DNA of 64,000 nucleotides. Origin: Fidelibacterota bacterium. GTDB lineage: Bacteria; Fidelibacterota; Marinisomatia; Marinisomatales; UBA1611. The notes beneath the pieces were generated by a model. It saw only the letters and a list, made by a program, of their open reading frames with translations. It did not search any database and had not been told where the DNA came from. The stretch is taken from assembly GCA_002708715.1 (NCBI GenBank), contig PAPB01000035.1, positions 22,285 through 86,284 of the forward strand, read 5' to 3'. Below are positions 40,845 through 63,938 of this stretch, piece by piece. The position numbers and the translations under genes were made by a program. Each line of letters begins with the position of its first letter. The first letter of the stretch is position 1.

Positions 40845-41851
40845 GAAACTATACAATAATTAAATATTCTATTTTTCTTTTTATGCTTTCTCAATTATTA
40901 TCCGTAGACAAAGCGGGTACGACATCAGCTAAATTTTTATCAATAGGAGCTGGTTCTGCTGCTGTTAGTATGGGAGGTGCATTTACTTCTATTGCGAATG
41001 ATGCTACTGCAATGTATTGGAATCCTGCAGGTATAAGTTTTTATAATATGAGAGAGGTTTATTTTAACCATTCTAACTGGATTGCAGATATCTCTCATGA
41101 TTATTTTGGTTTAACTATACCACTTAATTCTAAAAACACTATTGGGTTTAATTTGATTTCTGTGACAATGGATGATATGGAGGTTACACGCTATGGTAAT
41201 GAAGATACTGGAGAGACATTTAAAGCGGCAGATTATGCACTCGGAGTATCTTATGCTGTGAACTTTACAGACCGTTTTTCTATTGGTTTTAATGGCAAAT
41301 ATATACAGCAAATGATAGCGAGTAGTTATGCAAGAGGATTAGCTCTTGATATAGGGACTTTATTTGATACCCCTTTCGGATTTCGTTTAGGTACGAGTAT
41401 CAGCAACTTTGGACCAAAGTTAAAAATGACTGGCGATGATTTATTGGTTGCTGCTGATGTTGATCAAACGATTGAAGGTAATAATGAAAGTGTAATCAGT
41501 GTGTTGTCTACAGACTATTTTGATTTACCATTAGTATTACGTTTTGGTATTTCAGATAATGTTAAAGTTGGAAAATTGTTAAAAATGTTATGGTCGGTAG
41601 ACGCTGTAAGTCCTAATGATAATACAAATTATATAAATATAGGATTGGAGTTTAGTTTTCTCAATGACCTTCTACGCTTGAGATCAGGAATTAATTCTTT
41701 ATTTTTAAGTGATAATGAAAAAGAATTTTCACTAGGTCTTGGATTAAAAATCCCAAGCATTGGTAAGAATAATATTTTGATGAATTATTCCTATGAGTCT
41801 ATGAAATTTTTGGGAGTTACGCAGCAGATAGGCATATCCTTTGCATATTAA
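40841..41851 (+). CDS. PorV/PorQ-family-like outer-membrane beta-barrel (module A)
   Basis: It has a signal peptide followed by GTTSAKFLSIGAGSAAVSMGGAFTSIANDATAMYWNPAGI, the hallmark PorV-type N-terminal motif (FL.I....RA.GMGGA....DA.A.YWNPAG). An alternating beta-strand pattern follows. It is 336 aa, and the ATG overlaps the upstream stop (ATGA). Confidence 0.7.
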   Translation: MRNYTIIKYSIFLFMLSQLLSVDKAGTTSAKFLSIGAGSAAVSMGGAFTSIANDATAMYWNPAGISFYNMREVYFNHSNWIADISHDYFGLTIPLNSKNTIGFNLISVTMDDMEVTRYGNEDTGETFKAADYALGVSYAVNFTDRFSIGFNGKYIQQMIASSYARGLALDIGTLFDTPFGFRLGTSISNFGPKLKMTGDDLLVAADVDQTIEGNNESVISVLSTDYFDLPLVLRFGISDNVKVGKLLKMLWSVDAVSPNDNTNYINIGLEFSFLNDLLRLRSGINSLFLSDNEKEFSLGLGLKIPSIGKNNILMNYSYESMKFLGVTQQIGISFAY

Positions 41852-47494: not shown

Positions 47495-50400
47495 CTATTT
47501 CATTAATAGCATTTTTCCTGTTAAGATTCGATTATCTGAAGTAACCCTATATAGGTATAATCCAGAAGGAACTTTCTGACCATAAGTATTATTAGCATTC
47601 CACTGTATCGCATGTCTTCCTGCATGTAATTCACCATTCTGAAGTGTAATGATTTCATTACCCAAAATGTTGTATACAGTTACGTTTACCTTTGAGGTAT
47701 AATCTAAATCAAAGCGTAAAGTTGTTACAGGATTAAATGGATTAGGATAATTGCCTAATAATACGAATTCCTTTGGTGTGACAATATCCTCTTCTTCAGC
47801 AGATAGCACATCTGTAGAAATCATCATACCAATATTATCAAAATAGACAGCACCAGCATCAGCCTCTGGACCCTGCCATAATTCACAACCAGCATTAACA
47901 TTTACAGCTCCATCAGGAACCATACCTGAGACCATAACATGGTGCCACATATCAGTTGTCGAAGATGCATCAATTACTTCTGATGTGTATTTAGCTAATT
48001 GACTCCATCCAGCATCAAAGAATTCAACAAACAAATATCCATTATTATTACCTGTTACGGCATCACCAGCGGGTGTCATCATGTGGCCTTGCATATGGAC
48101 ATAGTTACCAGGTTCAAGGCCTAAACCATCAACACTGAAACCTTGATATACTGGTGTCCACTCAGGATTATCGTTAGAGTCATCAGTCCTGGGTGTTATT
48201 TGAAGACTGTGCATCCCTTCAAATGGATACATGTCATTGGCTTCCCAGTTTTCTAACTCTGGTGGCCAACTTCCCCAACCAAATGCGCCTTCTTCAAAAC
48301 CGCCATTTGTTAAGTATCCACCAGGACCTGCCCATGGATTTGCAGGGTTGTTATCACCAAATACTGTTTGCAACAGTACAGTTCCACTTGCGTCAGTATT
48401 CATATAGAATACTTTATCAATACCATAACCTGCTTCATTATCCATCGCGCCATTGTCTCCACCTTCATTTTCAATTCCAGGATAGTAGGCACCTAATTTA
48501 TAGGTGAACACATTACCATGGCCCGCAGGCAACATTAATGATCCAGTGAATACACCATCTCCATCTGAGTCAGTGAGTCTTGGTACATCAGGAGAACATG
48601 GTGTTGCACAATCAGGACCCATACAGTCACCCCAGGTACACCAACAATTCAAGAAAGAACCATTCATGATGAGTGTGTCAGGATGCTCTACAAAATATTC
48701 ACCAGTATTAACATTCTGAGTATTCATCATCCACATTGCGTGAATCTCAACTGTTACATCATTTAGAAGCTCTCCAATTGGAAGAATTACTGGCTCTGCT
48801 GGATCAAGAATGAGATCTTCACCCGTAAATTCAAACACTCTATTTGCCGCAGTCTCCCAACCACCATTGTTGAAGTTCTCATCTGGGTTTGCCTTAAACT
48901 TCCACTCATGCATACTACCTGGAGCAGCCATGATTGTTTTAGTAAAGGTGTAGAGGTTTGGATCGGTTAGATCTTCCTGGAATACATCTCCAGCTCCCCA
49001 ACCGTTTATTCCACCTCTTAGCTCCATGAAGTGTGTATTAGCATCCCATCCTTGAGATAATAAAGTCGTCATATCTGCCTGGAAGGTTACATTAGCCTCA
49101 ACAGGGTCTCCGCCACATGTGTAACATGAGCTGAAACAGAATGGAGGAGTCATGGTGTCTTCTTCTCCAACTGATATAACACGATCACCCCAATCTCCAG
49201 CACCACATCCTTCTGCGGTTAGGTTTCCACCATCTTCATATCCAGCATCATTACCACCATTATTGAATTTGTAGTAGTGTTCACCTTCTGGAAGAGGTAC
49301 CTTGATCATGTAGATACTTTCTTCACCTTCGACTAAAGTCATTGGATGAAAATTTGGCCAGAAAACACCACCACCAAGAAAAACACCATCTGGTGAAATT
49401 GTCTCTACTTCTTCCATATCTACATGGAAAACAACATAAGACTCATCACATGACAGACACTCTCCAAAACAAGCTGGAGGTAGTACTGTATTTTCATCAG
49501 GTACTACTAGCCATCTATCACTACCAAATCCACCTGCTCCACCACAGACAGGGTCTGTTACACTTTCATCATTTCCCCATGCATTACCATTAATAAATTT
49601 ATAGTAAAGAGTATCACCCGCTTCTGCTTCAATATCAACAGAAAAAATACCATCCATATCGGGATCATGTAGCTCAGTTGCACCTGGATCCCATCCTTGG
49701 AAACTTCCAGCGACGTGCACGCCATCATCAGAGACATCATGGTTTCTCATGTCTAGGTTAAGGGTAATAACGCGAGGTAGGAAGGGGTTTGCTGGATTAT
49801 TATCTCCAAATACAGTTTCCAATGTCACAGTTCCGCTTGCGTCTGTTGGAATGTAATATACTTTATCTGCGCCGAAGCCCGCTTCGTTATCCATAGATCC
49901 ATTTTCACCAGGTACATCTTCAACACCCGGATAATATGCACCGAGTTTGTAGGTGAATACATTACCATGTCCAGCAGGTAAACTTAGTGAACCAACATAG
50001 ACTCCATCACCATCTGGATCAGTAAGACGCGGGACATCTGGAGAAACAGATTCTGCGCAACTTGATCCCATACAGTTACCCCATGTACACCAGCAATTTA
50101 AGAACGATCCGTTCATAACTAATGTATCAGGAGTTACAGGAAAGGGCTCGTTGTTATTAGCATTGAGAGTACCTTCCACCCACGTTGCATGAATCTCAAC
50201 GTCTACAGCATTAGCAAGTGGTCCAATAGGAAGGATAGCAGGTGTCTCAGGAGCAAGAACTATATCTTCTCCCCAGAAATAGAATATTCTATTAGCAGCT
50301 GTTTCCCAACCATTATTATTAAAATTAGCATCAGGGTTAGCTTTAAACTTCCACTCTTGTACTGAACCGGGCTGTGCTGTGATTTCTTTTGTAAAGGTAT

Positions 50401-51295
50401 AGAGGTTTGGATCTGTGAGATCTTCTTGGAAGACATCTCCAGCAGCCCAACCATTCATTCCACCTCTAAGTTCCATGAAATGTGTATTGACGTCCCAACC
50501 TTGTGATAGTAGAACACTCATATCAGCCTGGAAAGTAACACTAGCTGTTAGAGGCTCACCGCCACAAGCATAGCAGGAAGCAAAACAAGGAACTGGATCA
50601 AACATCATGTCATCTGCTGAAACAGTTACAGCTCGATTAACAAATTCACTACCTTGTGTTGTACAAAAATCTTCTTGAAGCTCTTCCCAGTTGTCGCCAT
50701 TTATCACAAACTTATACTCGTGTACGCTCTCTTCAGGAAATGCTTTAGAAAGTTTATAGATACCATCACCAGCATCCTCCATCCAATCAACTGACGCATC
50801 CCAAGCATTAAATGTTCCTGCTAGTCTCACGTCTGTTACATCAAACCCAGCAACATTTACCGCAAAATGAACGTAAGATTCGTCACAGCCAATACATTCA
50901 CTAAAACACACTGGATCAAGAACAGTATCTGCATCAGGAACCGCTAGCCATCTATCATTTCCAAAACCACCAGCACCACCACATAGTGGATCCTCAACGC
51001 CTTCATCATTTCCCCATGCGTTTCCATTAATGTATTTAAAATAGACTGTGTCTTCTGCCACGCCAGACATGTCAACAACAACGGTGTAGACACCATCTCC
51101 ATCTTCATCAGTCAATGCTGTAGCAGCTGGATCCCAGCCCTGAAAGCTACCCGCAACGTGTACCCCATCTTCTGAAACAGTTACATCAGACATATCTACA
51201 TTCAATGTAACGTTAACAGCAAAAAGAGAAGAGGTTAGTGCTACGATCATAGCCAAGGAAAAAACCTTTAATCGATTTATCATAGATTGCTCCAT
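47495..51295 (-). CDS. 1266-aa surface protein with a duplicated ~480-aa block of four beta-sandwich (CBM-like) modules, a CBM4/9-like domain and a T9SS C-terminal domain
   Basis: It has a signal peptide. Module signatures include DGVHVAGSFQGWDP, VRLAGTFNAWD, MELRGGMNGWAAGD and MNGSFLNCWCTWG. There is an NGGFEEGAFGW block. The C-terminus reads NYPNPFNPVTTLRF...GLYLYRV...MLLMK. Confidence 0.6.
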   Translation of the reverse strand: MEQSMINRLKVFSLAMIVALTSSLFAVNVTLNVDMSDVTVSEDGVHVAGSFQGWDPAATALTDEDGDGVYTVVVDMSGVAEDTVYFKYINGNAWGNDEGVEDPLCGGAGGFGNDRWLAVPDADTVLDPVCFSECIGCDESYVHFAVNVAGFDVTDVRLAGTFNAWDASVDWMEDAGDGIYKLSKAFPEESVHEYKFVINGDNWEELQEDFCTTQGSEFVNRAVTVSADDMMFDPVPCFASCYACGGEPLTASVTFQADMSVLLSQGWDVNTHFMELRGGMNGWAAGDVFQEDLTDPNLYTFTKEITAQPGSVQEWKFKANPDANFNNNGWETAANRIFYFWGEDIVLAPETPAILPIGPLANAVDVEIHATWVEGTLNANNNEPFPVTPDTLVMNGSFLNCWCTWGNCMGSSCAESVSPDVPRLTDPDGDGVYVGSLSLPAGHGNVFTYKLGAYYPGVEDVPGENGSMDNEAGFGADKVYYIPTDASGTVTLETVFGDNNPANPFLPRVITLNLDMRNHDVSDDGVHVAGSFQGWDPGATELHDPDMDGIFSVDIEAEAGDTLYYKFINGNAWGNDESVTDPVCGGAGGFGSDRWLVVPDENTVLPPACFGECLSCDESYVVFHVDMEEVETISPDGVFLGGGVFWPNFHPMTLVEGEESIYMIKVPLPEGEHYYKFNNGGNDAGYEDGGNLTAEGCGAGDWGDRVISVGEEDTMTPPFCFSSCYTCGGDPVEANVTFQADMTTLLSQGWDANTHFMELRGGINGWGAGDVFQEDLTDPNLYTFTKTIMAAPGSMHEWKFKANPDENFNNGGWETAANRVFEFTGEDLILDPAEPVILPIGELLNDVTVEIHAMWMMNTQNVNTGEYFVEHPDTLIMNGSFLNCWCTWGDCMGPDCATPCSPDVPRLTDSDGDGVFTGSLMLPAGHGNVFTYKLGAYYPGIENEGGDNGAMDNEAGYGIDKVFYMNTDASGTVLLQTVFGDNNPANPWAGPGGYLTNGGFEEGAFGWGSWPPELENWEANDMYPFEGMHSLQITPRTDDSNDNPEWTPVYQGFSVDGLGLEPGNYVHMQGHMMTPAGDAVTGNNNGYLFVEFFDAGWSQLAKYTSEVIDASSTTDMWHHVMVSGMVPDGAVNVNAGCELWQGPEADAGAVYFDNIGMMISTDVLSAEEEDIVTPKEFVLLGNYPNPFNPVTTLRFDLDYTSKVNVTVYNILGNEIITLQNGELHAGRHAIQWNANNTYGQKVPSGLYLYRVTSDNRILTGKMLLMK
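48335..51217 (-). repeat. Intragenic tandem duplication: unit 1 = 51217-49775 (aa 27-507), unit 2 = 49774-48335 (aa 508-987)
   Basis: The units align end to end, for example VNVTLNVDMSDVTVSEDGVHVAGSFQGWDPAAT... with VITLNLDMRNHDVSDDGVHVAGSFQGWDPGAT.... Both end in TVFGDNNPANP. Similarity is also visible at nucleotide level. Confidence 0.85.
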
Positions 51296-51325
51296 TTTTA
51301 CTTTATTTACGTTTAAATATTTTAG

Positions 51326-51343
51326 TAACTCTAGATAGAGACA
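51326..51343. promoter_or_regulatory. Imperfect copy (TAACTCTA-GA-TAGAGACA) of the palindrome found at 59850-59867; candidate shared operator
   Basis: It lies 31 nt upstream of the ATG of the 1266-aa gene. The surrounding ~35 nt (TTAGTAACTCTA..TAGAG..ATTAATT.TAGG) are shared with the 59.85 kb region. Confidence 0.45.
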
Positions 51344-51425
51344 CTATTAATTATAGGTAGTAAAACCAGTTTAACATACTAATTTAGTTATAATGGCCTT
51401 AATTCTACAAAAGAATTTTAGTAGG

Positions 51426-52436
51426 TTATAATGATGTTGTAAGTGTGATTTTTTTGGGATTGCCTAGCGGACCCATATCTACATAGGTATAATCAATATG
51501 ATAGTACGTATTAGATATTTTTAATTTTATTCCACATCCAATAGATACACCAGAGATGCTATCTCGTTGATACAGATTTGCTAACCCTGAACGCAAGAAC
51601 AAGAAATCTTTAAATGTTAATTCAGAGCCTAGATTAATACTCTCTGTATTATCATTGGGATGCAGGGCATCTACGGCAAATAAGATACTTAGATTATTGG
51701 GTAAGCTTTTTTTATAGGCTAATCCAAAGCGGAATATAAGTGGAAGTTCAAAACGATCTGTTGCAAAATTAGCATTAATATTAATTGGATCAGACTCAAG
51801 GCTGGGGTCTACCTCAGTTTGTAAAAGTAAATCGCGTCCTTCCATCTGCATCTTTGTACCGTAGTTTGATATACTCATTCCCATAGTAAGTCCAGGAATT
51901 TGCGTATCGTATAAGGTACCAAGGTCAAGTGCCAAACCATTGGCCTTAGAGTTGTAGATACTTTCTCGAATAATCTTAGTTGATATTCCAAAAGAAAATC
52001 TATCTGTGAGAGACCTTGAAAATGTTAGCTGACCCATAATAGAACCAGCATTAAATTTTTCACCTGTACCTTCAGGGGAATGGGTTGTTGTCACTTCCAT
52101 TTCACCCATATACATTGCGCTAATGGCTGCACCTATAGTTCCAAAAGGAGTGTTATAAGATCCGCCAATAAAATCTAGATCTACATCTAATATCCAATCT
52201 TGGTGATCTAGTATGATTTCATTTTTTTTAATGGATGCTAATCCAGCAGGATTCCAATAGAGAGCAGTCGCATCATTAGATACGGCGGAGTAAGCTCCAC
52301 CCATACCAAGAGCCCTTGCTCCGATTCCAATTTTTAAAAATTGGGCTGCAGTGGTTCCTGTTTTAGAAACAGTTTGTGTAAAAGATATAGATAAAAACAG
52401 AGCTAAGATTGGTATCGTTTGTATAAAATATTTCAT
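51426..52436 (-). CDS. PorV/PorQ-family-like outer-membrane beta-barrel (module B), paralogue of 40841..41851
   Basis: It has GTTAAQFLKIGIGARALGMGGAYSAVSNDATALYWNPAGLA and is also exactly 336 aa. The ATG overlaps the upstream stop by 4 nt. Confidence 0.7.
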   Translation of the reverse strand: MKYFIQTIPILALFLSISFTQTVSKTGTTAAQFLKIGIGARALGMGGAYSAVSNDATALYWNPAGLASIKKNEIILDHQDWILDVDLDFIGGSYNTPFGTIGAAISAMYMGEMEVTTTHSPEGTGEKFNAGSIMGQLTFSRSLTDRFSFGISTKIIRESIYNSKANGLALDLGTLYDTQIPGLTMGMSISNYGTKMQMEGRDLLLQTEVDPSLESDPININANFATDRFELPLIFRFGLAYKKSLPNNLSILFAVDALHPNDNTESINLGSELTFKDFLFLRSGLANLYQRDSISGVSIGCGIKLKISNTYYHIDYTYVDMGPLGNPKKITLTTSL

Positions 52437-55400
52437 TTTATGACTGCAAATTTTCCTAAATGAGGTTTAAAATCATATAAACCTTCATCCATAGGCTCAA
52501 CATGATAAAAATATACTCCGTAGGCGATATCTAGATTATCTTTAGTTAGCATATCCCATTCGTAAGATCCATCATCAAAGTCGGTATTATGAATTAAGGT
52601 ATTGACAAGTTCTCCAGAGAGAGTAAATACTTGGATTTTACACTGTGGAGGAAGGTGATTAAAATGAATAGAGCGTGGTCCTCTGCCATCTGCATATGGA
52701 TTTTGTCCTTCCCAACTTGCAGCTACAATATAAGGATTGGGTACAACTTTAATATTATTAGTTGAATAATTTAATAATCCTGGATCAAATGAAGCTCCTT
52801 TTGAAATAAACTCATACACATCTGCACTTGAAAAGGGTTTAGTGGTGTACAAAGATAACGTATCGCCAGTAGTTGGTATATGTTGCTCCGGTATGTTATC
52901 GTGGCCAGGTGTTACATTCCATGTAACAAACGAAGTGTCTCCTACATGCTCCAATAGTATAATTCGGTCAGAATAAGAAAAGTGACCTGGTTTTGCTAAT
53001 TCAAGTTTTAGTGCATAGTCTGTGCCAAAAAGAGATACCGCAAATCCAAAATCTGACCATGTTCCTGCGACAGTATCTATAATGTTATAGTATCCAAATT
53101 GATCTTCTCTTAGATAAAACTCACTGTTGATTATTGAATCAATAGGTACCGAATCTGGAAGACCAGCAGCCTTGCTGTAGTATATCCAGGTCCTATCAAT
53201 TATCGCTAGATCAATGCTTATCTCTTCATTATCTAAATCAATTACCTTAAAATTTGCCATTGAGGAATCAATGGTAATGGTTTGACCATTCTCGCGTAAT
53301 AGATCAATAGAAGCTGTTGAGTATATTGCAGAGTCTGAGAACACTAATCCATAATTTCTTGGATAGGCGACGCCCTGAGTTGCGATACCTCCGAAACTGA
53401 AGGGGCTGAAAGTATAAGCATAATCAGATTCTGATTCTGGGTAAAAATGAGATAGGTCACTATCGGTCTGAATTGATGTTTGATTATTTATTTCTAAAAT
53501 CATTCCATTAAATTGACCTAGGTCACTATCGAGATCAGTGCTCCATGGTACCACAGTATCCAATTGAGTATTGTTTGATATATTTACCACCATAAAATCA
53601 GTGGTGTGTGGTATTGCTTCGTCTAGATCATAAATATCTAAATTTGGTTCTCCAGTATCGGCTACCCCATTATTTTCTGTCATCTCACCATAGTCAAATT
53701 CTCCATTATTTTCTGTTCCAAATGGATTGTTATTGTATTCATAATCATCATTGTTAGGATCAGGGTTTTGGGTTGGGTCGAATCCAAATTCCTGTTCATT
53801 GCACAACCCATCTGAGCCGCAATCATTCCAGTTATCTTGATTCTCATCATTTGCAACGGGATTGGCAAAATCATTACATCCTCCGAGGCCATTTTCATAG
53901 TAGTCAGAGCATCCATCAATACCAACATCATGGGAATCGGCAGACCAATCACCATCATCATCAATCATATTCATGCGTGTATCTTTAAAATAGATTTGAT
54001 AGATATTATTATCTGGAATTTTTGAAGGATCAATATTGCGTATTTTCATTGTTCCAGTACCTACTGGTGTAGTTACTGGATAGACATCTTTTTCCTTTGG
54101 TGCTGCAACATAGCCAATAGAGGGAGCATCAGGGACTGCGGTTATAACATTTTTTGCGGTAATAACTTTTCCACCTCGATTCATGGTTACAAATTTCGAT
54201 GTTTCAGCTGGAAGAATTTCTTTTTCAATTGACCCATGATCGTAGGCTGTTACCGCATAAAAATATCTATGTCCATTGATTACATTTGTATCGGTCCAAG
54301 AATGTACTAGTCCAGAATTGTTACCAAGATAAAATTGAATTCCATCTACATGACCTGGGTAAAAATCTTCAAATTCATTGATCTTATCATATTGTTTAAT
54401 AGGAATATTAAATTTTGCGGTACCAAATGCATCAGTTATAACACCAGCATCTGTGAATTGAGTGTCAGTCGCTTTATAAATTTTATATCCTTCAAAATCA
54501 TCACCAGTTATTCTATCTACAGATTGCTCTGCATTATCGTCCCAATATAGTGTAACATATCCATCTCCAGAGTATGCCCAGACGCTTGGTAGGTCTGGTG
54601 CTTTTGCAAAATTATAGTTCTGGTTATATATAGTTTGGACAGTTTGTTTATTTCTAACCAAATCAGGGAGATTATCACCAAATAATAATGCGATTGAGAA
54701 TCGCTCTGTGAGATCTTTTTTCAATGGGAAATATCCAGAGCTGAATAAGAAATCAGCATCGGTGTTTGATATAGAATTATTAAAATAACCTGGTAGCATC
54801 TCTTCCCATAGCCTTGGATCGTCATCCATTTGTGGTCCTACACCAAAATTAAAATAATAAAAACTGGATAGTCCTATCTGGTCTGATTCATCTACATCTG
54901 TTTTATCAATATTTGGTTCACCAGGTAATTCTGTACCCATTCCTGAGGTAGGAAGGCCGTCTCCTTCTCCGAGATCTCCGCTTCCTGGCATCCCGTCTAT
55001 GCCCACATCATCTGTAGCAATATCCCAGTCACCATCATTATCAATGCCATCTTCTCTGCTTTCGTCAATGAGAGTGTTGGTGGATCCGATCCCGCTAAAA
55101 TAATCTATATATTTTAGGCCTTCTCCTGATAGAGCATCAAAATATAGATATGTATCTTCAAAAATACCTGGCGCGATTTCTATGGATGCACCATTATTTT
55201 CATCGATCAAACCATTTAGGTTGTCATCGATAAGATTTCTTGGTATCTCTTCTAGTATATCTCCTGGCATAAACACATGCTCGCTATTCGATTTTTGAAT
55301 TATAATACCGCTTGATGGCATAGCAACTAAGGTTCTTTCATAGGTCTGGTAGTCGATTACGACTATAGTATCGCCAGTGCTATAAGATCGACTAGAGAAC

Positions 55401-56401
55401 ACATCTTCTGAAAGTGTGAGTCCTAAACCATCTGATCCATCGCCATCATTATCTAATCCATCATAGGGATTTCCAGGACTTTCCAAGAATGCATAACCAG
55501 CAAGTCCAACAGGTGACCACCCGCTAGATCCTATACCACCTAGACCAGTTTCTAAGTCAGTGCCATTGTCATATGAAAAGGCTATATCATCTGATTTTTC
55601 AAAATCAGCCCAGTCATCTCCGCTGTCCCCATCACCACCAGTGATGGTTCCTACAATATAGCCGAATACCATTTTTTCCATATCATAGTCACTTATATTT
55701 TTGATGTCATATAGCCAAAATAATACATCTTCAGCTAGAATATGGTTCCATTGTAATCCTCTTTGTGTACATCTTAGTCCCATGCCACGTCTTTCAAGAT
55801 CATTCGAATCTGGATAATAAAAAAATTCTGCATCTTGGGCGTCATCCATTACAAAATAACTTTCTTGTTCAGCATTTTTCTGATCTTTACCAAAATATCC
55901 GTTCCAAGTACCTGCCCATCCAGGATCCAATGGGTCATCTAGCTTATCCGGCCATTGTTCAGGCCAGGTATTGACATTAGCATTCTCTCCTTCAGATGGT
56001 CCCATATGACTCATAGCAATTAGAGGAGTATCTGGGTTAGTGTATCCAGACAAAGGTTCCCAGCCCCAATGGGTGTCAAGATTAAATTCACTACCACGTG
56101 GACTATCAATAGTAATCACACTTTTTCTTTTGATATTATCATTATCAACAAATTCTGTACCAACCATATGACCGACATCACCAATGTATTCATGTCCTGA
56201 ATTAATTGGCCACTCTCCACCAATATCTTCAGGCTCACTTGTCCATCGTCCTACTAAACCATAGTTATAGAAGGTAGTGCGAATTTTATTTCCTGAGTGG
56301 TCATTCTTAGCCCTAGCGAGTGAATTGCCTTTTGGACTTCCACTATGGCCTATGCTTAGAAAGAACCAAAGGATAAATAGTATATTATAATATTTTACCA
56401 T
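52433..56401 (-). CDS. Large secreted surface protein (module B), paralogue of 37134..40844
   Basis: It has a signal peptide and blocks shared with the paralogue: WPDKLDDPLDPGWAGTWNGYFGKDQ, DESREDGIDNDGDW, LPGEPNIDKTDVDESDQ, the FN3-like GDGYVTLYWDD...FEGYKIYKATD, and GHRYFYAVTAYDHG. The C-terminus reads IKVVPNPYI...LPPQCKIQVFTLSGELV...GVYFYHVEP...GKFAVIK. Confidence 0.6.
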   Translation of the reverse strand: MVKYYNILFILWFFLSIGHSGSPKGNSLARAKNDHSGNKIRTTFYNYGLVGRWTSEPEDIGGEWPINSGHEYIGDVGHMVGTEFVDNDNIKRKSVITIDSPRGSEFNLDTHWGWEPLSGYTNPDTPLIAMSHMGPSEGENANVNTWPEQWPDKLDDPLDPGWAGTWNGYFGKDQKNAEQESYFVMDDAQDAEFFYYPDSNDLERRGMGLRCTQRGLQWNHILAEDVLFWLYDIKNISDYDMEKMVFGYIVGTITGGDGDSGDDWADFEKSDDIAFSYDNGTDLETGLGGIGSSGWSPVGLAGYAFLESPGNPYDGLDNDGDGSDGLGLTLSEDVFSSRSYSTGDTIVVIDYQTYERTLVAMPSSGIIIQKSNSEHVFMPGDILEEIPRNLIDDNLNGLIDENNGASIEIAPGIFEDTYLYFDALSGEGLKYIDYFSGIGSTNTLIDESREDGIDNDGDWDIATDDVGIDGMPGSGDLGEGDGLPTSGMGTELPGEPNIDKTDVDESDQIGLSSFYYFNFGVGPQMDDDPRLWEEMLPGYFNNSISNTDADFLFSSGYFPLKKDLTERFSIALLFGDNLPDLVRNKQTVQTIYNQNYNFAKAPDLPSVWAYSGDGYVTLYWDDNAEQSVDRITGDDFEGYKIYKATDTQFTDAGVITDAFGTAKFNIPIKQYDKINEFEDFYPGHVDGIQFYLGNNSGLVHSWTDTNVINGHRYFYAVTAYDHGSIEKEILPAETSKFVTMNRGGKVITAKNVITAVPDAPSIGYVAAPKEKDVYPVTTPVGTGTMKIRNIDPSKIPDNNIYQIYFKDTRMNMIDDDGDWSADSHDVGIDGCSDYYENGLGGCNDFANPVANDENQDNWNDCGSDGLCNEQEFGFDPTQNPDPNNDDYEYNNNPFGTENNGEFDYGEMTENNGVADTGEPNLDIYDLDEAIPHTTDFMVVNISNNTQLDTVVPWSTDLDSDLGQFNGMILEINNQTSIQTDSDLSHFYPESESDYAYTFSPFSFGGIATQGVAYPRNYGLVFSDSAIYSTASIDLLRENGQTITIDSSMANFKVIDLDNEEISIDLAIIDRTWIYYSKAAGLPDSVPIDSIINSEFYLREDQFGYYNIIDTVAGTWSDFGFAVSLFGTDYALKLELAKPGHFSYSDRIILLEHVGDTSFVTWNVTPGHDNIPEQHIPTTGDTLSLYTTKPFSSADVYEFISKGASFDPGLLNYSTNNIKVVPNPYIVAASWEGQNPYADGRGPRSIHFNHLPPQCKIQVFTLSGELVNTLIHNTDFDDGSYEWDMLTKDNLDIAYGVYFYHVEPMDEGLYDFKPHLGKFAVIK

Positions 56402-59400
56402 CTATAGTGATACATTTATGCCTATGTTGACTCTTCTTGGTTCGCCATACCAATCAGGACGAAGCAGGTGTTCATTAAGATGTCCGATCCGTCCAGGATC
56501 AGTTAAGGATACATCTTTTGCAGTAAGTGTATAGGTCGATCTTCCTGTATCATTCCAAACAGAAAATTCGTTTCTTATATCAAGGAGATTATAAATATTG
56601 CAATAAAGGTTTGATTTTAGACCAAGTAGAGAAAGCGAATAGGATGCACGTATATCCAAGTCAAATATATTTGGTTTTCTCTCACTGTTATCTGCAAAAC
56701 CAGCAAATGCACCAGAACCAGAGACAACACCTGTCTTGAATTCAGGAGTATATGGCTTCCCAGTCCAAAGTTTTCCAATTGAACTTATGATCCAGTTTTT
56801 ACCACCAAATGTGGTACGAAAATTTAGAGTGTGAGTCTGATCCCAATCCAGAGGAAGCATATTGAGCCTTGGCGCCTGATTATCTTGAGCGTCAAAGTAT
56901 GCATCTTGAGGATTTGAATATGTTCCTTCTGCAATCATCCAAGTGTAGTCAACTCCTCCTCCAAAACCACCAGTAAATTGACGGTCTAAAACAAGCGTAA
57001 ATCCTCTTGTGTTTGCATAATCTTTATTTTCATACTTTCTATAGTTTCCAACTGGATATTTTTTGATAGCGGTAGAAATACCAACCCAGTCTCTTGTGTC
57101 ACGATAAAAAATGGTAAGGTCAATAGCTGTTCTGTACGCAATTTCTTGCTTAAATCCAATTTCATACATGACAGTTTTTTCAGGTTTTAAATCAGCATTT
57201 CCAAGAATTCCACCATTATTGTTATTTGTAATTTCAAATTCTGGATTTTCATATAAAAAGCTAAAATTTGGGACCTGGAAGAAGTGGCCATATGATACAT
57301 GAATAACGCCTTTATCAGTTATAGGATATGCGATACCGATTCGAGGACTTATCTGGTATGAAGGTTTAACAGTTTTATATCCATAACCCCATCTAAAAGA
57401 ATCTCTGTAGGTATATAGCTGCCTATCAAAAGCTTGTGTATAAGACTCTACAGTTGAATCATATTCAACACCAGTAGTGAAAAGATTTTCTATGGAAACC
57501 GCACCTTGTTGAGTGATGGAGTCAATAATAGTAACGTCATCATGTAGTAATGAGAAATCATGTTCCCAAAAGACAGTAGTATCATTTTGAGTTTTCGTTA
57601 GATAATATTTTAAATTACCTGGTAATTGATCATTTGTGGGGACTTTCCAATCTGGATCAAAATAATCAAAACGCGTACCTGCATTAATGATTAATTCATC
57701 TAATTCTATTTTATCTTGTATAAATAGTGAGAACTCTTTGGGACTTGCTCTAAAATAGTCATGCTCAGATGTATAAGTAGGGTTAATGATTGGAGTGAAA
57801 GGATTCATACGTGCACCAGCTAGAGGGTTATATCCTAGCGTGTCCCCGTTTTGAGTAACCGACCATTCCCCAACAGTTTTATAATTTAAAAATTTATCAT
57901 CTGCCCAGATATCATATACCTTGTACAATATCCCTGCTTTTATAAAGTGCGTTGGATTAATTTGGCTAGATATATCGAATTTTAATTGTTTAAATGAAGT
58001 ATTTCTACTGAACCGCCCATTCTGAGTTCCACCAATACCAAAAGACCACGCGGGTGTGATAAATTCATCACTGGCAACATATCCACTTTGGTCACTCATA
58101 TCTATAATTTGATACATATTCTCGTTAAGTGAGTCCAAATCGTACCTAGGAATATTTTTAAAAATATCATAGCCCATTCTTACTTGAATTGAGTCATTCA
58201 GGTTTAAAGCATCTAATTCACTTTGGTCTATTATTCTACTTGCATTTGGCACATCATTTATATCATAAAGTGACTGGTTGTAGCCACTGCTAAAGTCTAG
58301 ATATTTTAGTTCATAGAACGTGCTTTGATTAATACTATGAGTTAGTGATAGCATATGAGATTGATCGGATTCAAAGTGTTGAAGTAATCCGTCAGGGTTG
58401 TATTTGTAATAGCTATCGTAATTTTTATAAGATTTCTCTGTAATATATCCAGTGTAACTAGTTTTTATATCTGGTCGTATTTTATATGTTAGTTTAAATT
58501 GACCAGATAATTTTGAATAGGGCGATAGTGGGACAATAGTTTCATCGCTAAAATTGCCAGTGGGAGTAAATAATTTTCTTCCATAATAGCGACCAGATGA
58601 TTGGTAATATCTGAAGGTTGAATAAAAAGTAAGTCGTTTGTTTAATAATGGAACAGGGCCACTTAAACTTCCTGATAGGTTTGTTTGTTGAAAAATATTT
58701 TCGAAAATATTTAAATATTTTGTATATCCATTTTTATCAAGGCTGAACTCGTGCTCTCCCCAGTCCATACGACCATTGCCTTCTCCAGGACTAGGTTGAG
58801 TAGTTTTTCCATCGCCATTATAATCGTAGTAATCACCTAAATATCCATCATAACCAACGTCATCATTTAAAGGTTCTGATCCTTCATCACCATCCCATGA
58901 TTGATTACCATTCCTGTCCCAGTAAATTTCTCCTTCATCCCAGGTACCGTTATTATTTAAGTCATAAAGGATTTCACCGTAATCCCAATTACCATCACCA
59001 TTAATATCTGTAAAAGATTCCCAGTTAGAAAAAGGAGAAGATAGAGAGTAAAGATCAGAATGGCTAGAGTGATATCCACCACTATAAAAATCAAGATTTC
59101 CTTCGAAGTTTTCACCACCATCTTTTGTAACTACATTAACAATCCCTGACATTGCTTGTCCATATTCTGCGTTAAAAGTACCAGAGATTACCTGTACCTC
59201 CTGGATCCCAGCATTCTCAACTTCTAAGCCAGAGCTACCATCATATGAATCAGTAGTGGCTACCCCATCAACCCAGAAAGAAACTTCACTACTACGTCCT
59301 CCTCTGACATGAAACCCTCCATTTGGGTCCCGTACAATACCAGCTTGTAGTTCAATAATATCACCTATATCAGTAACAGGTAAATTCTCAATATCTTCAG

Positions 59401-59827
59401 AGCTAACAACGGCAGACATAGAAGTTTGGTCTAGTCTCACCGTTGGCTTTTCAGCTGTAACAATAATTTCTTCACCTGCAATTGTCTCTGGCTTTAAAGA
59501 GAAATCAGATTTTGCAGTTAGGTCAACAATAACCTGTGTACCCTCAATTGTTACTGTCCCATATCCAATCATAGAAGCCGATATATTGTAGGTGCCAGGT
59601 GGAACATTAATAATAAAATATTCACCTTCAAGATTTGTAGCAGCACCATAAGAGGTGCCTTTAACAATGATATTACATCCTATTAGTGGCTGGTTGTTCT
59701 CATCAACAACTTTTCCAGATATTTTACCAGTTGTACCTGCATATAGAAATTGTAAAAGAATAAAAATATGTGTAAATAATTTTGTTTTTTTCACAATTTG
59801 ATAGATTAAATATCTGCTATAATTCAT
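56402..59827 (-). CDS. TonB-dependent outer-membrane receptor with a CarbopepD_reg-like N-domain (module B), carrying an extra acidic Ca-loop insertion
   Basis: It has GKISGKVVDENNQPLIGCNIIVKGTSYGAATNLEGEYFIINVPPGTYNI and a plug (HVRGGRSSEVSFWVDGV...VISGTFNAEYGQAMSGIVNVVTKDG). The barrel blocks YGHFFQVP and DLKPEKTVMYEIG are shared with 34208..37120. Confidence 0.85.
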   Translation of the reverse strand: MNYSRYLIYQIVKKTKLFTHIFILLQFLYAGTTGKISGKVVDENNQPLIGCNIIVKGTSYGAATNLEGEYFIINVPPGTYNISASMIGYGTVTIEGTQVIVDLTAKSDFSLKPETIAGEEIIVTAEKPTVRLDQTSMSAVVSSEDIENLPVTDIGDIIELQAGIVRDPNGGFHVRGGRSSEVSFWVDGVATTDSYDGSSGLEVENAGIQEVQVISGTFNAEYGQAMSGIVNVVTKDGGENFEGNLDFYSGGYHSSHSDLYSLSSPFSNWESFTDINGDGNWDYGEILYDLNNNGTWDEGEIYWDRNGNQSWDGDEGSEPLNDDVGYDGYLGDYYDYNGDGKTTQPSPGEGNGRMDWGEHEFSLDKNGYTKYLNIFENIFQQTNLSGSLSGPVPLLNKRLTFYSTFRYYQSSGRYYGRKLFTPTGNFSDETIVPLSPYSKLSGQFKLTYKIRPDIKTSYTGYITEKSYKNYDSYYKYNPDGLLQHFESDQSHMLSLTHSINQSTFYELKYLDFSSGYNQSLYDINDVPNASRIIDQSELDALNLNDSIQVRMGYDIFKNIPRYDLDSLNENMYQIIDMSDQSGYVASDEFITPAWSFGIGGTQNGRFSRNTSFKQLKFDISSQINPTHFIKAGILYKVYDIWADDKFLNYKTVGEWSVTQNGDTLGYNPLAGARMNPFTPIINPTYTSEHDYFRASPKEFSLFIQDKIELDELIINAGTRFDYFDPDWKVPTNDQLPGNLKYYLTKTQNDTTVFWEHDFSLLHDDVTIIDSITQQGAVSIENLFTTGVEYDSTVESYTQAFDRQLYTYRDSFRWGYGYKTVKPSYQISPRIGIAYPITDKGVIHVSYGHFFQVPNFSFLYENPEFEITNNNNGGILGNADLKPEKTVMYEIGFKQEIAYRTAIDLTIFYRDTRDWVGISTAIKKYPVGNYRKYENKDYANTRGFTLVLDRQFTGGFGGGVDYTWMIAEGTYSNPQDAYFDAQDNQAPRLNMLPLDWDQTHTLNFRTTFGGKNWIISSIGKLWTGKPYTPEFKTGVVSGSGAFAGFADNSERKPNIFDLDIRASYSLSLLGLKSNLYCNIYNLLDIRNEFSVWNDTGRSTYTLTAKDVSLTDPGRIGHLNEHLLRPDWYGEPRRVNIGINVSL

Positions 59828-59849
59828 AAAATTTTAAAATACTTATTAG

Positions 59850-59867
59850 TAACTCTATTTAGAGTTA
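59850..59867. promoter_or_regulatory. Perfect inverted repeat TAACTCTA-TT-TAGAGTTA between the module-B TonB receptor and the divergent TrmB-like gene (candidate operator)
   Basis: Read directly from the sequence. It is 23 nt upstream of the receptor ATG (59827) and 91 nt upstream of the regulator ATG (59958). Confidence 0.5.
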
Positions 59868-59957
59868 TTAATTTTAGGGCAAATTAGTGTAATCTAAAAT
59901 TAATTTTTAACTTAAATCAGCAGAGCAAATATAAATGATTTCAACTGGCCTAATAAA

Positions 59958-60755
59958 ATGAAAGAAATACAGAGTTTTTTAATTGAATTTGGCTTTACAT
60001 CTAATGCTGCCAAGGCTTATACGGCTCTATTAAAAAACAACCCATCCACTGGTTATGAAATTAGTTCGCAAACGGATATTCCGAGGTCGGCTATTTACAA
60101 TGTATTAAATAGGTTAGTCAGTTTGGGCTTTGCAAATAGTGTTGGCGATTCTCCAAAGAAATATATTCCACTACAACCACCTGCTCTTATCGAACATCTA
60201 AATCAATCTCATAATGAGAAATTAGAGGGGCTTAAAGACGCAATTAGTAATATTGAAATTGATGATGAGGCTTTTGACTTTTGGCATTTGCATGGGTATA
60301 GAAATATTATTCTTAAAGCAAAAGAATTGATCAATAATGCTCAGGAAAAAATTGCAATCAGTTGCTGGGAGCGAGAAATCGAAGAAATTAAAAAAGAATT
60401 ATTTGCTGCAAAAGATAGAGGCATTGAAAGCACTATCTTCTCTTTTACAAAAATTGATGAAAAATTAGGGAAAGTAGTATCGTATAATTTGGATGAAAAA
60501 GATCTTCGAAAAATATGGACCCCTAAGGTTATTATGGTTGTTGACCATAAGTATACTATAATGGGCAGTACAAAAAAAACAGAAAATAGTAAGGCCATCC
60601 TTACTCAAAATACAGCTATCAATGAAATTGCAACCAACCATATAATTTTAGATATTACACTTGCAGGTCAACGACTAGGTATTGATTCTAGTGTATTTGT
60701 TACAAATATTATGCGCAATTCGGCTGAAGATTTGGAAGATTTATTAAAGTCTTAG
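59958..60755 (+). CDS. TrmB-family sugar-responsive transcriptional regulator
   Basis: Its N-terminal wHTH reads L.EFGFTSNAAKAYTALLKNNPSTGYEISSQTDIPRSAIYNVLNRLVSLGF, the typical TrmB pattern, and is followed by a C-terminal effector-like domain. 265 aa. Confidence 0.8.
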   Translation: MKEIQSFLIEFGFTSNAAKAYTALLKNNPSTGYEISSQTDIPRSAIYNVLNRLVSLGFANSVGDSPKKYIPLQPPALIEHLNQSHNEKLEGLKDAISNIEIDDEAFDFWHLHGYRNIILKAKELINNAQEKIAISCWEREIEEIKKELFAAKDRGIESTIFSFTKIDEKLGKVVSYNLDEKDLRKIWTPKVIMVVDHKYTIMGSTKKTENSKAILTQNTAINEIATNHIILDITLAGQRLGIDSSVFVTNIMRNSAEDLEDLLKS

Positions 60756-60789: not shown

Positions 60790-62298
60790 GTGATGCAGGA
60801 AATGTTAAATTCAAAAAGGGCTAGTGGTATCTTGATGCATATCACATCTCTGCCAGGTCCTTATGGTATTGGTGAGATTGGTAATAATGCAAAAGCATTT
60901 ATTGATGACCTTATTAAAATGAATCAATCTTATTGGCAGATCCTACCTACAAATTATCCAGAGACATGTAATAGTCCATATGACACAAATTCAGCATTTG
61001 CTCAAAATCCATTTCTGATTTGTATAGATTCTCTTATAGAAGATGGTTTAATTAAAAAAAATGATTTAGAGCCTATACCAGACTTTGGTGATAGAAAGGT
61101 TGAATTTGAAAAATTAAAAAAATGGAAATTCCCAATTCTTAAAAAAGCCGCACATAATTTTTTTAAGGATGGTAGTGATAAGGATATTGCAGAATATAGT
61201 GACTTTTGTAATGAACATGATTTTTGGCTTAATGACTATGCTCTATTTATTGTGATAAAAAGTTTAGAGAATAAACTAAATTGGTCCGATTGGGAGCCTA
61301 GATATAAAAATTTAGATAAAGATGCGATAAGAGATATATTTACCATCTATGAGGATCAGATCGAAGAAATAAAAATATTACAATACTTTTTTTATAAACA
61401 ATGGAAAATTTTAAAAGCATATGCGACTTCTAGGGATATTAAGTTGATTGGTGATATCCCGATTTATATATCTTTCAATAGTGCAGATGTATGGAAAAAT
61501 CAGTCTCTATTTAAGTTAGATCAAGATTCTAAAATGAAATATCAGTCAGGGTGTCCGCCTGATTATTTTATGGAATCGGGGCAACTTTGGGGTCATCCTA
61601 TCTATGATTGGCAAAAGCATTTAGATTCAGGATTTAATTGGTGGATTAATCGTATAAACTATATAATAAAATATGTGGATATCATTAGAATTGACCATTT
61701 TAATGGATTCGCAAAATACTGGGAAGTGCCAGCAAATGATTTAAATGCTATTCATGGTAAATGGGTTAAAGCAAAAGGGACTGAACTTCTTGATAATCTT
61801 TTTAGAACAGAAAAAAAAATCTATTTAATTGCTGAAGATCTTGGTGAGGCATCTGCTGATGCTGCAGTAATACGCAAGAAATATAATATTCCAGGAATGA
61901 GTGTATTGCAATTTGCCTTTTATGAGGAAGATCCTCTTAGTGATATTCAGGAAAATACGGTTTTATATACTGGTACACATGACAATGATACATCAATTGG
62001 ATGGTATAATTCTCTTAATGGACAGCTTCCTCAGGATAAAATGGATATGGTGAAAAATATTTTAAATTTGAATTCAAAGGAGGTCAATTGGGCAATGATA
62101 GAATATGCTTTTCAATCTAGAGCATTGAATGTAATGGTTCCAGTTCAAGATCTTTTAGGATTGGGATCTGAGGCTCGTATGAATACTCCAGGTACTATTA
62201 GCGATCAAAATTGGACATGGAGAATGACGCAAAATGATTTGAAGGATTCTATAATGCACAAAATGAAAAAAATTACCCAAAAAGCGAATCGCATATGA
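60790..62298 (+). CDS. malQ: 4-alpha-glucanotransferase (amylomaltase, GH77)
   Basis: It has RASGILMHITSLPGPYGIGEIG, GDIPIYIS, the RIDHFNGF-type block (IIRIDHFNGF), AEDLGE and YTGTHDNDT. The start may be the ATG at 60793 rather than the GTG at 60790. Confidence 0.9.
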   Translation: MMQEMLNSKRASGILMHITSLPGPYGIGEIGNNAKAFIDDLIKMNQSYWQILPTNYPETCNSPYDTNSAFAQNPFLICIDSLIEDGLIKKNDLEPIPDFGDRKVEFEKLKKWKFPILKKAAHNFFKDGSDKDIAEYSDFCNEHDFWLNDYALFIVIKSLENKLNWSDWEPRYKNLDKDAIRDIFTIYEDQIEEIKILQYFFYKQWKILKAYATSRDIKLIGDIPIYISFNSADVWKNQSLFKLDQDSKMKYQSGCPPDYFMESGQLWGHPIYDWQKHLDSGFNWWINRINYIIKYVDIIRIDHFNGFAKYWEVPANDLNAIHGKWVKAKGTELLDNLFRTEKKIYLIAEDLGEASADAAVIRKKYNIPGMSVLQFAFYEEDPLSDIQENTVLYTGTHDNDTSIGWYNSLNGQLPQDKMDMVKNILNLNSKEVNWAMIEYAFQSRALNVMVPVQDLLGLGSEARMNTPGTISDQNWTWRMTQNDLKDSIMHKMKKITQKANRI

Positions 62299-63938
62299 AC
62301 AAACAATTTGAAATAGCATATTTTTCTGCTGAAATAGGTATATCATCTAGTATCCCAACATATAGCGGTGGGTTAGGGGTATTGGCTGGAGATCATATAA
62401 AAGCTGCTGGTGATGCTGGAATTAGTATGTGTGCTATAACGCTATTATATAAAGAAGGATATTTTAAGCAACGTTTAGATGAAGAAGGAGTACAGACTGA
62501 AACATATCCAAGGTTTGATCCTGATCCATTAATTAAGCAAATGGATTTAAATTTTTCAATCCAATTGCGTAATAGAAAAGTATTTATTCAAGTTTTTAAA
62601 TTTGAGTATGTTGCAGATTCTGGTGATCGTGTTCCAATATTTTTTTTAGATACAGATACAGATAAAAATATTGATGAAGATAGATTTATCACTCATAGAT
62701 TATACTCAGGAGATAAGGATCATCGTATTCTTCAAGAGTCAGTGCTTGGGTTCGGAGGTATAAAATTATTACAGAAGCTTGAACAAAATAGTATAAAAAC
62801 TTATCACATGAATGAAGGTCACTGTTCTTTTCTAGTTCTTAGTCTATTACGCCATTTTAAAGGAGACGCTGATAAAGTAAAATCATTATGCCATTTTACA
62901 ACGCATACTCCTGTTCCAGCTGGTCATGACCATTTTTCATTGGACCGTACAAAAAACATACTGAATGATCTTATTCCTGATGATATGGTATTGCCATCGA
63001 TAGAAAAATCGCAGAGGCTACACATGACAGAACTGGGATTGCATTTTAGTAGGAGTGCCAATGGAGTATCAGAGTTACATGGTGATGTTGCACAAAATCA
63101 GTTTCCTTGGGCTTCAATTGGATTTATAACTAATGGTGTGCATCACAGCTATTGGATGGGCACAACTTTTAAAAATATTTTTGATAAATATTTACCGGGT
63201 TGGAGATTAGATCCAGATAAATTATTAGAAATAGATTCTGTCCCAGATCAAATTTTATTAGAAGCACATTTATCTAGAAAAAAACGATTATTAACTTATG
63301 CTAATTCTCAAACTGGAAAGGCGCTAGATATGGAAACCCTAACCATTGGATTTGCGCGACGCTCTGCAACATATAAACGTGCTCAGCTTCTCTTTAATGA
63401 TTTAGAAAAACTGCGACTATTAGGTCATAAGAAAATTCAAATAATCTATTCTGGAAAGGCGCATCCCAAAGACACTGGTGGTAAAGAATTAATCCGTCAA
63501 ATTGTGACAAAAGCAAAAAGTCTATTTGGTTCTATTAAAATTATTTATTTAGAGAATTATGATATGTGGCTTGGGAGATTAATTACTTCTGGAGTAGATG
63601 TTTGGCTTAATACACCTCTAAGACCAAATGAGGCATCTGGTACGAGTGGGATGAAAGCAACCCTAAATGGTGTCCCCAATTTATCAATTTTAGATGGATG
63701 GTGGGCTGAAGGATGTGATCATAAAGTAAATGGTTGGGCTATTGGAGACCCAAATCATCCAGATGACCAAAAAGATGCAGAACACTTATATTATCTATTA
63801 GAAAATCAAATCATTCCGATGTTTTACGATAACAAGAAAAAATGGATTGGGATAATGAAACAAGCTATAAAAACAGGAGTAAGGTTTACAGCTTTTCGAA
63901 TGATAAATGAATATAAAAACCAATACTATAAGGTGTAA
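62295..63938 (+). CDS. glgP: Alpha-glucan (maltodextrin/glycogen) phosphorylase, short GT35 type
   Basis: It has YSGGLGVLAGDHIKAAGD, FTTHTPVPAGHD and EASGTSGMKATLNG (PLP-Lys region). It overlaps the malQ stop by 4 nt. Confidence 0.9.
   Translation: MNKQFEIAYFSAEIGISSSIPTYSGGLGVLAGDHIKAAGDAGISMCAITLLYKEGYFKQRLDEEGVQTETYPRFDPDPLIKQMDLNFSIQLRNRKVFIQVFKFEYVADSGDRVPIFFLDTDTDKNIDEDRFITHRLYSGDKDHRILQESVLGFGGIKLLQKLEQNSIKTYHMNEGHCSFLVLSLLRHFKGDADKVKSLCHFTTHTPVPAGHDHFSLDRTKNILNDLIPDDMVLPSIEKSQRLHMTELGLHFSRSANGVSELHGDVAQNQFPWASIGFITNGVHHSYWMGTTFKNIFDKYLPGWRLDPDKLLEIDSVPDQILLEAHLSRKKRLLTYANSQTGKALDMETLTIGFARRSATYKRAQLLFNDLEKLRLLGHKKIQIIYSGKAHPKDTGGKELIRQIVTKAKSLFGSIKIIYLENYDMWLGRLITSGVDVWLNTPLRPNEASGTSGMKATLNGVPNLSILDGWWAEGCDHKVNGWAIGDPNHPDDQKDAEHLYYLLENQIIPMFYDNKKKWIGIMKQAIKTGVRFTAFRMINEYKNQYYKV

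Follow-up and report, generated by a model that had tools for sequence, protein, structure and literature searches.

A conserved palindrome upstream of a TrmB-family gene is a predicted operator for the flanking alpha-glucan operons of Marinimicrobia

The palindrome situated between a TrmB-family regulator gene and a divergent TonB-dependent receptor gene in the DNA analysed here (the window, 64 kb at full length) is very probably a TrmB operator that controls the alpha-glucan operons on either side, an assignment drawn from comparative sequence analysis. The motif accompanies this subfamily of regulators across Marinimicrobia as well as in a distant lineage of high GC content, and is found almost only in intergenic DNA near trmB or alpha-glucan genes. 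TrmB control through this palindrome, as originally predicted, has gained support, since the predicted operator adjoins trmB in 63 of 70 loci as well as in a second phylum-level group. The mode of control is probably repression. What is new here is the bacterial setting, the truncated effector domain and the motif; the TrmB family and the regulatory logic, which is ordinary, are known.

Results

A perfect palindrome between divergent regulator and receptor genes

Positions 59850-59867 of the window read TAACTCTATTTAGAGTTA, a perfect inverted repeat with 8-nt arms and a 2-nt spacer (TAACTCTA-TT-TAGAGTTA; assigned to neither strand), in exact agreement with the original prediction. With one mismatch, the arms lengthen to 13-2-13 (59845-59872). 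The palindrome is flanked by the ORF of a TonB-dependent receptor (56402-59827, minus strand) and by the TrmB-family gene (59958-60755, plus strand). The divergent region between them had been given as 130 bp, which is correct if the receptor starts at ATG 59827; with the GTG at 59794, a start whose equivalent is common to the closest relatives (L001, L002 and L004), it measures 163 bp, and by this comparison the GTG start and the longer gap appear more likely. By itself the palindrome is not significant, because about 12 of this kind are expected by chance in a window of 33% GC; its weight comes from conservation. Perfect palindromes with arms of at least 8 nt and spacers of 0 to 4 nt numbered 29 in the window, versus 12.2 +/- 3.9 expected from Markov-1 simulations, and the chance expectation for such a palindrome is approximately 0.025 per 130-bp gap and 0.5 across all intergenic DNA. 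Directly to the right lies a perfect 11-nt AT-rich inverted repeat, ATTAATTTTAG / CTAAAATTAAT (59867-59877 / 59894-59904, 16 nt apart). Its sequence is partly kept in close relatives; as a conserved structure it was rejected, the consensus fold giving no support.

The regulator gene, hereafter trmB, encodes a protein of 265 aa that was assigned from Pfam, NCBIfam and PDB profiles, an AF2 model and Foldseek. It is followed on the plus strand by malQ, encoding a GH77 4-alpha-glucanotransferase (60790-62298), and by an alpha-glucan phosphorylase gene (62295-63938), both identified by Pfam and NCBIfam profiles. Only 34 nt separate trmB from malQ, and the malQ and phosphorylase genes overlap by 4 nt; this tight packing suggests a single transcript for all three. 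Past the window end, on the same strand of the contig, genes for an SSF symporter, a GH13 protein with a T9SS tail, a CBM48-GH13 protein and another GH13 protein follow, again tightly packed. The leftward operon (51426-59827, minus strand), delimited by Pfam and NCBIfam matches and a gene order kept in relatives, comprises the receptor, which has CarboxypepD_reg, Plug and TonB_dep_Rec domains, a 1322-aa "giant" protein without any Pfam or NCBIfam match (52433-56401) and an outer-membrane protein assigned to the PorV/PorQ family by profile match (51426-52436). A 130-bp gap separates the PorV gene from a gene on the same strand for a CBM48/X25/SusF-like starch-binding array protein (47495-51295; 1266 aa; Pfam and NCBIfam matches) that carries a T9SS C-terminal sorting domain. 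No SusD-family match was obtained among the genes scanned, and the gene after the receptor is the one for the 1322-aa protein. Profile searches agree with the neighbours named in the original prediction (TrmB, receptor-giant-PorV, malQ and phosphorylase), and the symporter that it had also placed after the regulator corresponds to the SSF-family gene just beyond the window.

A module consisting of a receptor, a 1250-1320-aa protein without Pfam or NCBIfam match and a PorV/PorQ protein is present twice in the window (module A, 34208-41851, plus strand; module B, 51426-59827, minus strand). The receptor-giant-PorV module recurs across Marinimicrobia loci, without SusD. Of the two copies in the window, module B is the only one with TrmB sites.

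The palindrome is conserved upstream of trmB in Marinimicrobia

A scan with a TrmB alignment, using one genome per GTDB species, yielded 72 loci, almost all from Marinimicrobia, Neomarinimicrobiota or Fidelibacterota, and usable upstream DNA was available for 70. Within 300 nt upstream of trmB, the best palindrome match keeps TAACTC-N6-GAGTTA in approximately 60 of these 70 loci, which come from genomes of 33-58% GC and encode regulators that are just 50-80% identical. The exact pattern has 49 matches in 816 kb, every one of them directly upstream of trmB. With a PWM trained on the same site family, for which the high-GC loci and metagenome matches described below are the independent tests, 63 of the 70 loci showed a site of at least 12 bits in the 260 nt preceding trmB, a density 142-fold that in the rest of the loci. 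Comparative footprinting had been proposed as a check on the palindrome; where the trmB arrangement is conserved the palindrome is conserved with it, both in these 63 loci and in the high-GC lineage.

The matching sites have the consensus gTAACTC-N6-GAGTTAc. In an anchored alignment, information content is limited to gTAACTCa-N4-tGAGTTAc and a short left flank (TTAAATTTAG), while the rest of the intergenic sequence around the site is unconserved. Judged by these alignments, the conserved unit is gTAACTC-N6-GAGTTAc and the 8-2-8 form is clade-specific. The primary site of the window occupies 59848-59869 in the 22-bp PWM frame, contains the conserved core TAACTC-N6-GAGTTA and scores 24.1 bits, the best value in the 64 kb. 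The distance from site to trmB varies from 32 to 216 nt across loci (median 88) and is 90 nt in the window.

The gene order giant < receptor (< PPIase) (< GH13) / trmB > malQ > phosphorylase > symporter is kept, and the left neighbour of the site differs by locus, being the receptor, a GH13 amylase (in most loci) or the threonine operon thrA-asd-thrB-thrC. At the loci with the threonine operon, the palindrome is retained 41-75 nt upstream of trmB. On the evidence of gene order, the constant partner of the site is trmB, not the receptor, and such constancy is what an autoregulated local transcription factor classically shows, and it makes autoregulation the link with the best support. Control of the regulator's own operon had been put forward as a possibility; the proposal stands, with the site tracking trmB through changing neighbours, and only the word "possible" proves too weak.

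The other PWM matches, from 752 kb of related loci, are almost without exception intergenic. Thirteen further sites are located between trmB and its downstream neighbour, a gene for GH77 MalQ or for a GH57 4-alpha-glucanotransferase; five lie directly upstream of a receptor gene, and others adjoin GH13 genes. The sole clearly intragenic strong match, of 18.9 bits, falls within the trmB coding sequence of L004 (6425-6446). A GH57 4-alpha-glucanotransferase gene takes the place of malQ at four loci (L014, 4779-6890; L059, 6937-9018; also L015 and L016), with a TrmB-type site still ahead of it, and from this synteny the replacement of GH77 MalQ by GH57 reads as a non-orthologous displacement inside a conserved regulon.

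In 7 of the 70 loci no strong site was found upstream of trmB, and some of these have the variant TAACTA-N6-TAGTTA. A variant perfect palindrome, AGT(A/G)ACTA-N6-TAGTTACT, is situated about 31 nt upstream of trmB in L018 (5968), L063 (5968), L067 (1375) and L068 (5968). It differs by a symmetric change in both arms, C to A and G to T, and scores merely 7-10 bits. L018 and L067 also have canonical sites nearby, that of L018 preceding malQ. Whether regulator and motif co-vary was considered with these four loci, which were set aside as an unclean test, given the canonical site in L018. At the more divergent TrmB paralogues L064 and L065 (38-40% identity) the motif is absent. Two loci, L036 and L063, labelled Winogradskyella sp. 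and Dehalococcoidia, respectively, have trmB loci of the Marinimicrobia type, and their regulators share 53-55% identity with the window protein; L036 holds trmB-malQ, and trmB of L063 is cut by the contig end. Both are probably mis-binned contigs.

The motif accompanies TrmB homologues in a high-GC lineage

The matches listed by a metagenome-wide pattern scan were mostly unrelated or due to chance, such as a recurring human-gut sequence, and are unusable for counts. Among them were contigs of 54-71% GC; here the motif, itself AT-rich, is located directly upstream of TrmB homologues or beside phosphorylase, GH13 and CBM20 genes. Homologues of one such regulator are found in MAGs labelled Proteobacteria, Myxococcales or Deltaproteobacteria. 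We analysed three high-GC loci with their flanks (DNA of 66-73% GC), which encode TrmB proteins of 273-284 aa that are 29-37% identical to the window protein. The motif scores 29-38 bits there (L203, 2134 and 7943; L205, 252; L207, 7894) and all other positions in these loci score below zero. Ahead of trmB it lies at a distance of 58 nt in L203 and of 107 nt in L207, and in L205 it precedes a DUF6209-trmB gene pair; in L203 it is also found beside a glgB-like gene. In one high-GC contig the motif precedes a phosphofructokinase gene. Together with L092, L107, L108 and L115, these contigs span 54-73% GC; as a group they encode TrmB homologues of about 273-284 aa and have the motif upstream of trmB and near glgB, GH13, CBM20 and phosphorylase genes. 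To judge from these loci, the predicted regulator-operator pair extends beyond Marinimicrobia. That the regulator subfamily and the motif have been kept together despite diverging GC content, neighbours and protein sequence is strong comparative evidence for predicted binding of the one to the other.

A weaker site precedes the CBM-array gene

The PWM scores in the window rank as 24.1, 15.6, 9.0 and then at most 1.2 bits. The two best matches are both intergenic and within the alpha-glucan cluster, intergenic DNA making up 4.4% of the window. The second is a predicted, weaker operator, TAACTCTAGATAGAGACA (51326-51343; no strand assigned), recognised by its score and its presence in relatives. 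Its 22-bp PWM match, AGTAACTCTAGATAGAGACACT (51324-51345), has a consensus left arm and a degenerate right arm, and it is placed 30 nt upstream of the start of the CBM-array gene, between this gene and that for PorV. Scores of at least 15.6 bits were reached in 20 of 1000 shuffled windows, and approximately 0.0009 such matches are expected in intergenic DNA. In the relative represented by L073/L074 (TrmB identity 80%), a 15.0-bit site has been retained at this junction, with the strong and weak arms swapped. An exact AGTAACTC-N6-GAGTTACT is present at the PorV/CBM-array junction in at least three independent metagenome contigs (L123, L192 and L202) and, in the short contig L183, just downstream of the PorV gene. 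Control of the CBM-array gene, which the original prediction had included, is supported by this second site and its recurrence at that junction in relatives. No other intergenic region of the window scored above zero bits, including those of module A and of a cyclomaltodextrinase-like GH13 gene (26607-28457), and the PWM scan found no further site in the 7 kb downstream of the window.

The intergenic regions 51296-51425 and 59828-59957 both share, beyond the operator, TTAGTAACTCTA..TAGAG and then TATTAATT(A/T)TAGG. This shared block suggests a minus-strand promoter-operator cassette that may have been duplicated or convergently maintained.

The regulator lacks the C-terminal sugar-binding subdomain

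An identical protein (100%) is encoded in a MAG labelled 'Candidatus Marinimicrobia bacterium'. The regulator matches PF01978, the TrmB winged helix-turn-helix, at residues 10-74 (67.1 bits, cutoff 25.6) and the effector domain PF11495 at residues 108-219 (38.2 bits, cutoff 22.2), the latter over profile positions 2-114 of 233. NCBIfam gave partial matches to TrmB/TrmBL1/TrmBL2 and to TransRegTrmBHalo. PDB profile matches were 3qph, with an alignment that spans residues 6-164 only, and 5bpd. The AF2 model (pLDDT 84) consists of a winged helix, a long helix, one alpha/beta domain and then helices, with helices only beyond residue 219. The best full-length Foldseek matches to this model were the TrmBL2 structures 5bqt, 5bpd and 5box (about 260 columns, E 1e-12); the TrmB sugar-binding domain 2f5t aligned over 134 of 233 residues, and PLD/Nuc folds were also matched. 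The C-terminal beta-barrel subdomain of Pfu TrmB is absent, the protein ending at residue 265 with half of the effector profile matched. Six of the seven sugar contacts of Pfu TrmB (Asn305 to Glu326) sit in that subdomain (PMC4158304), and TrmBL2 and TrmBL3 (264 aa) are without it as well (PMC4158304). The regulator has a TrmBL2-like architecture but, as far as the motif allows a prediction, a sharply defined operator.

The Tyr that aligns with Tyr50 of Pyrococcus TrmB, a residue in contact with DNA (PMC4158304), is invariant among the homologues. Both lineages, Marinimicrobia and high-GC, have an invariant recognition helix, PRSA[I/V]Y, preceded by an equally invariant P-x-TGYE; W109, Y114, W137, E140, W187, D196, D232 and R239 of the remaining subdomain are invariant in both as well. 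We infer that the invariant aromatic and acidic residues of this remaining effector subdomain could form a pocket. How a TrmB without the sugar-binding subdomain senses its signal is a question raised by these data. The original prediction had taken the regulator to be maltodextrin-responsive; a maltodextrin-type sugar is a plausible effector, at somewhat less than even chances.

The leftward promoter is predicted to overlap the operator

The palindrome and the leftward start codon are 25-57 nt apart in the closest relatives; for most GH13-type loci the distance is 15-45 nt. With only 16-57 nt between site and start codon there is no room for a promoter, and that of the leftward operon, or its transcription start, must either overlap the site or be placed beyond it; bound TrmB should for this reason repress the receptor-giant-PorV operon. 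On the receptor-operon strand, a -10-like TAAAAT (59871-59876, minus strand), which we take as an inferred promoter element, is located 3 nt upstream of the palindrome; together with TTTAGA at 59898-59893 it gives a 9/12 sigma-70-like match, and the block ATTAATTT is invariant in 9 close relatives. At the secondary site, a perfect TATAAT (51350-51355, minus strand), likewise an inferred promoter element, is located 6 nt upstream of the operator core on the CBM-array strand. It has no -35 match and was not called as a full promoter in the sigma-70 scan. With promoters of Marinimicrobia uncharacterised and sigma-70-like matches near both sites no commoner than in shuffled sequence, the predicted promoter overlap is deduced from the distances.

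At loci without a leftward sugar gene, too, the conserved left-flank element TTAAATTT directly adjoins the site. Its persistence there suggests that the trmB promoter also overlaps the site, which would result in autorepression. As the site is kept without a leftward sugar gene, approximately 90 nt upstream, it would most likely autoregulate the trmB-malQ-phosphorylase-symporter-GH13 operon.

Discussion

We propose that a TrmB dimer binds the operator with one winged helix per half-site, via the recognition helix PRSA[I/V]Y, and that the bound dimer would repress the leftward receptor-giant-PorV operon. Given the -10-like hexamers 3 and 6 nt before the two sites, transcription would start inside the operator. 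The same operator would most likely also autoregulate the operon that begins with trmB, and the weaker second operator could provide for separate control of the CBM-array gene. An effector derived from alpha-glucan (maltose, maltodextrin or glucose) presumably would release the repressor.

Alternatively, TrmB may bind the site as an activator, or in a dual activating and repressing role, at one of the operons or at both, a behaviour described for TrmBL1/Tgr and for TrmB of Halobacterium. Archaeal TrmBs do activate when their site is upstream of the promoter (PMC4158304), and the 32-216 nt to trmB leave room for a rightward promoter. However, the leftward start codon, only 16-57 nt away, is too close for a promoter downstream of the site, and the left flank that abuts the site without a leftward sugar gene suggests overlap with the trmB promoter on the other side. 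We consider activation unlikely.

The palindrome might instead be the site of another DNA-binding protein, for instance a global carbon regulator, with the adjacency to trmB being incidental. The link between site and TrmB comes from sequence comparison, and sites also adjoin other alpha-glucan genes. Against this, trmB is the sole neighbour that stays constant, in over 60 Marinimicrobia loci as in the high-GC lineage, while the others change, the divergent paralogues L064 and L065 are without the motif, and the recognition helix is invariant in parallel with invariant half-sites, so that a foreign binding protein seems very improbable. More improbable still is a function of the inverted repeat as RNA or DNA structure, i.e. 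a leader hairpin, attenuator, processing site or cruciform. A 12-bp hairpin with a 4-nt loop can form (-10.6 kcal/mol for the consensus fold) and may be transcribed in one or both leaders. Yet the outer six positions are invariant in base identity across genomes of 33-73% GC with fixed arm spacing, 0 of 12 pairs show a compensatory change among close relatives, single-arm substitutions such as GAGTGA disrupt pairing, and secondary sites keep only one good half-site. As an RNA element it had no Rfam match, and the consensus fold is only the palindrome itself. A chance palindrome in AT-rich intergenic DNA, although some 12 of this size are expected per 64 kb, is ruled out by comparative conservation, which fixes its position in more than 60 genomes and in the second lineage, and has a negligible probability.

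A broader reading can be formulated, which we offer tentatively and hold to be less likely than not. A TrmB subfamily without the canonical sugar-binding subdomain would act as a highly sequence-specific master switch for alpha-glucan use. Its operator and recognition helix would have been kept from Marinimicrobia to Myxococcota-like high-GC bacteria, the operator resembling the haloarchaeal TrmB motif; in Marinimicrobia, one operator on overlapping divergent promoters would run SusD-less starch uptake by the TonB receptor, giant protein and PorV-like protein, and the sugar signal would be recognised by a new pocket of the remaining PLD-like subdomain or by a partner protein. If this broader reading were true, the uncultured phylum SAR406 would have its first defined cis-regulatory code.

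Marinimicrobia (SAR406) are ocean heterotrophs, abundant and uncultured, for which the site gives a concrete and testable regulatory code. Full-text literature searches found no description of a Marinimicrobia regulator-operator pair or regulon, and nothing that connects TrmB with this phylum, with polysaccharide or TonB-dependent loci, or with a comparable bacterial regulon. Scanning for the motif can predict the set of genes that respond jointly to alpha-glucans: the receptor-giant-PorV module, the starch-binding surface protein, GH13, GH77 and GH57 enzymes, the phosphorylase and the symporter. The predicted regulon also gives the uncharacterised giant proteins of about 1300 aa a substrate context. 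Reviews describe the TrmB family as mainly archaeal (PMC4158304, PMC8253408), and it would be extended here to a defined, predicted bacterial operator.

Published TrmB motifs are TACT-N3-AGTA in Pyrococcus and Thermococcus, TATCAC-N5-GTGATA for TrmBL1/Tgr and TACT-N7-8-GAGTA in Halobacterium (PMC4158304). Archaeal TrmBs repress when their site is at or downstream of the promoter, and maltose, trehalose or maltodextrins release them (PMC4158304). The Marinimicrobia system resembles TrmB of Pyrococcus furiosus and Thermococcus litoralis in the combination of PF01978 and PF11495, in a (predicted) palindromic operator and in an alpha-glucoside cluster that encodes its own regulator. It also resembles Pyrococcus TrmB at the trehalose/maltose (malE) operon in its repressor logic (PMC4158304), here predicted. 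It differs from Pyrococcus TrmB in the bacterial host and RNA polymerase, in half-site and spacing (TAACTC-N6-GAGTTA), in protein length (265 versus 338 aa) with loss of the C-terminal sugar-binding subdomain, and in the target, a TonB-dependent outer-membrane system instead of an ABC transporter. Halobacterium salinarum TrmB (VNG1451C) shares the core ACT-N7-GAGT, as read from published consensus strings only, and a sugar-metabolism regulon, in which the outcome depends on site position (PMC4158304). In contrast to the window protein, it is a global archaeal regulator of approximately 100 genes with 360 aa and a full effector domain, and the outer bases of its motif are TACT, not AACT.

The closest structural counterpart, TrmBL2 (5bqt, 5bpd, 5box), is of nearly the same length (264 versus 265 aa), and neither protein has the C-terminal sugar-binding subdomain. 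As an abundant chromatin-like protein, TrmBL2 occupies coding as well as intergenic DNA and has no defined operator, whereas the predicted motif of the window protein gives only two matches above 10 bits in the 64 kb, both intergenic, an indirect sign of sequence-specific binding. TrmBL1/Tgr, with the Thermococcales glycolytic motif, is similar in having a hexamer inverted repeat before alpha-glucan and glycolytic genes, and different in motif, effector domain and domain of life. Finally, the locus recalls the Bacteroides Sus system (SusC/SusD, SusR) in its SusC-like receptor with an N-terminal carboxypeptidase-regulatory-like domain, its CBM proteins, its GH13 enzymes and its local regulator. 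Unlike in Sus, there is no SusD, the receptor is followed by the 1322-aa protein and PorV/PorQ, and the regulator is of an unrelated family and a predicted repressor, SusR being an activator.
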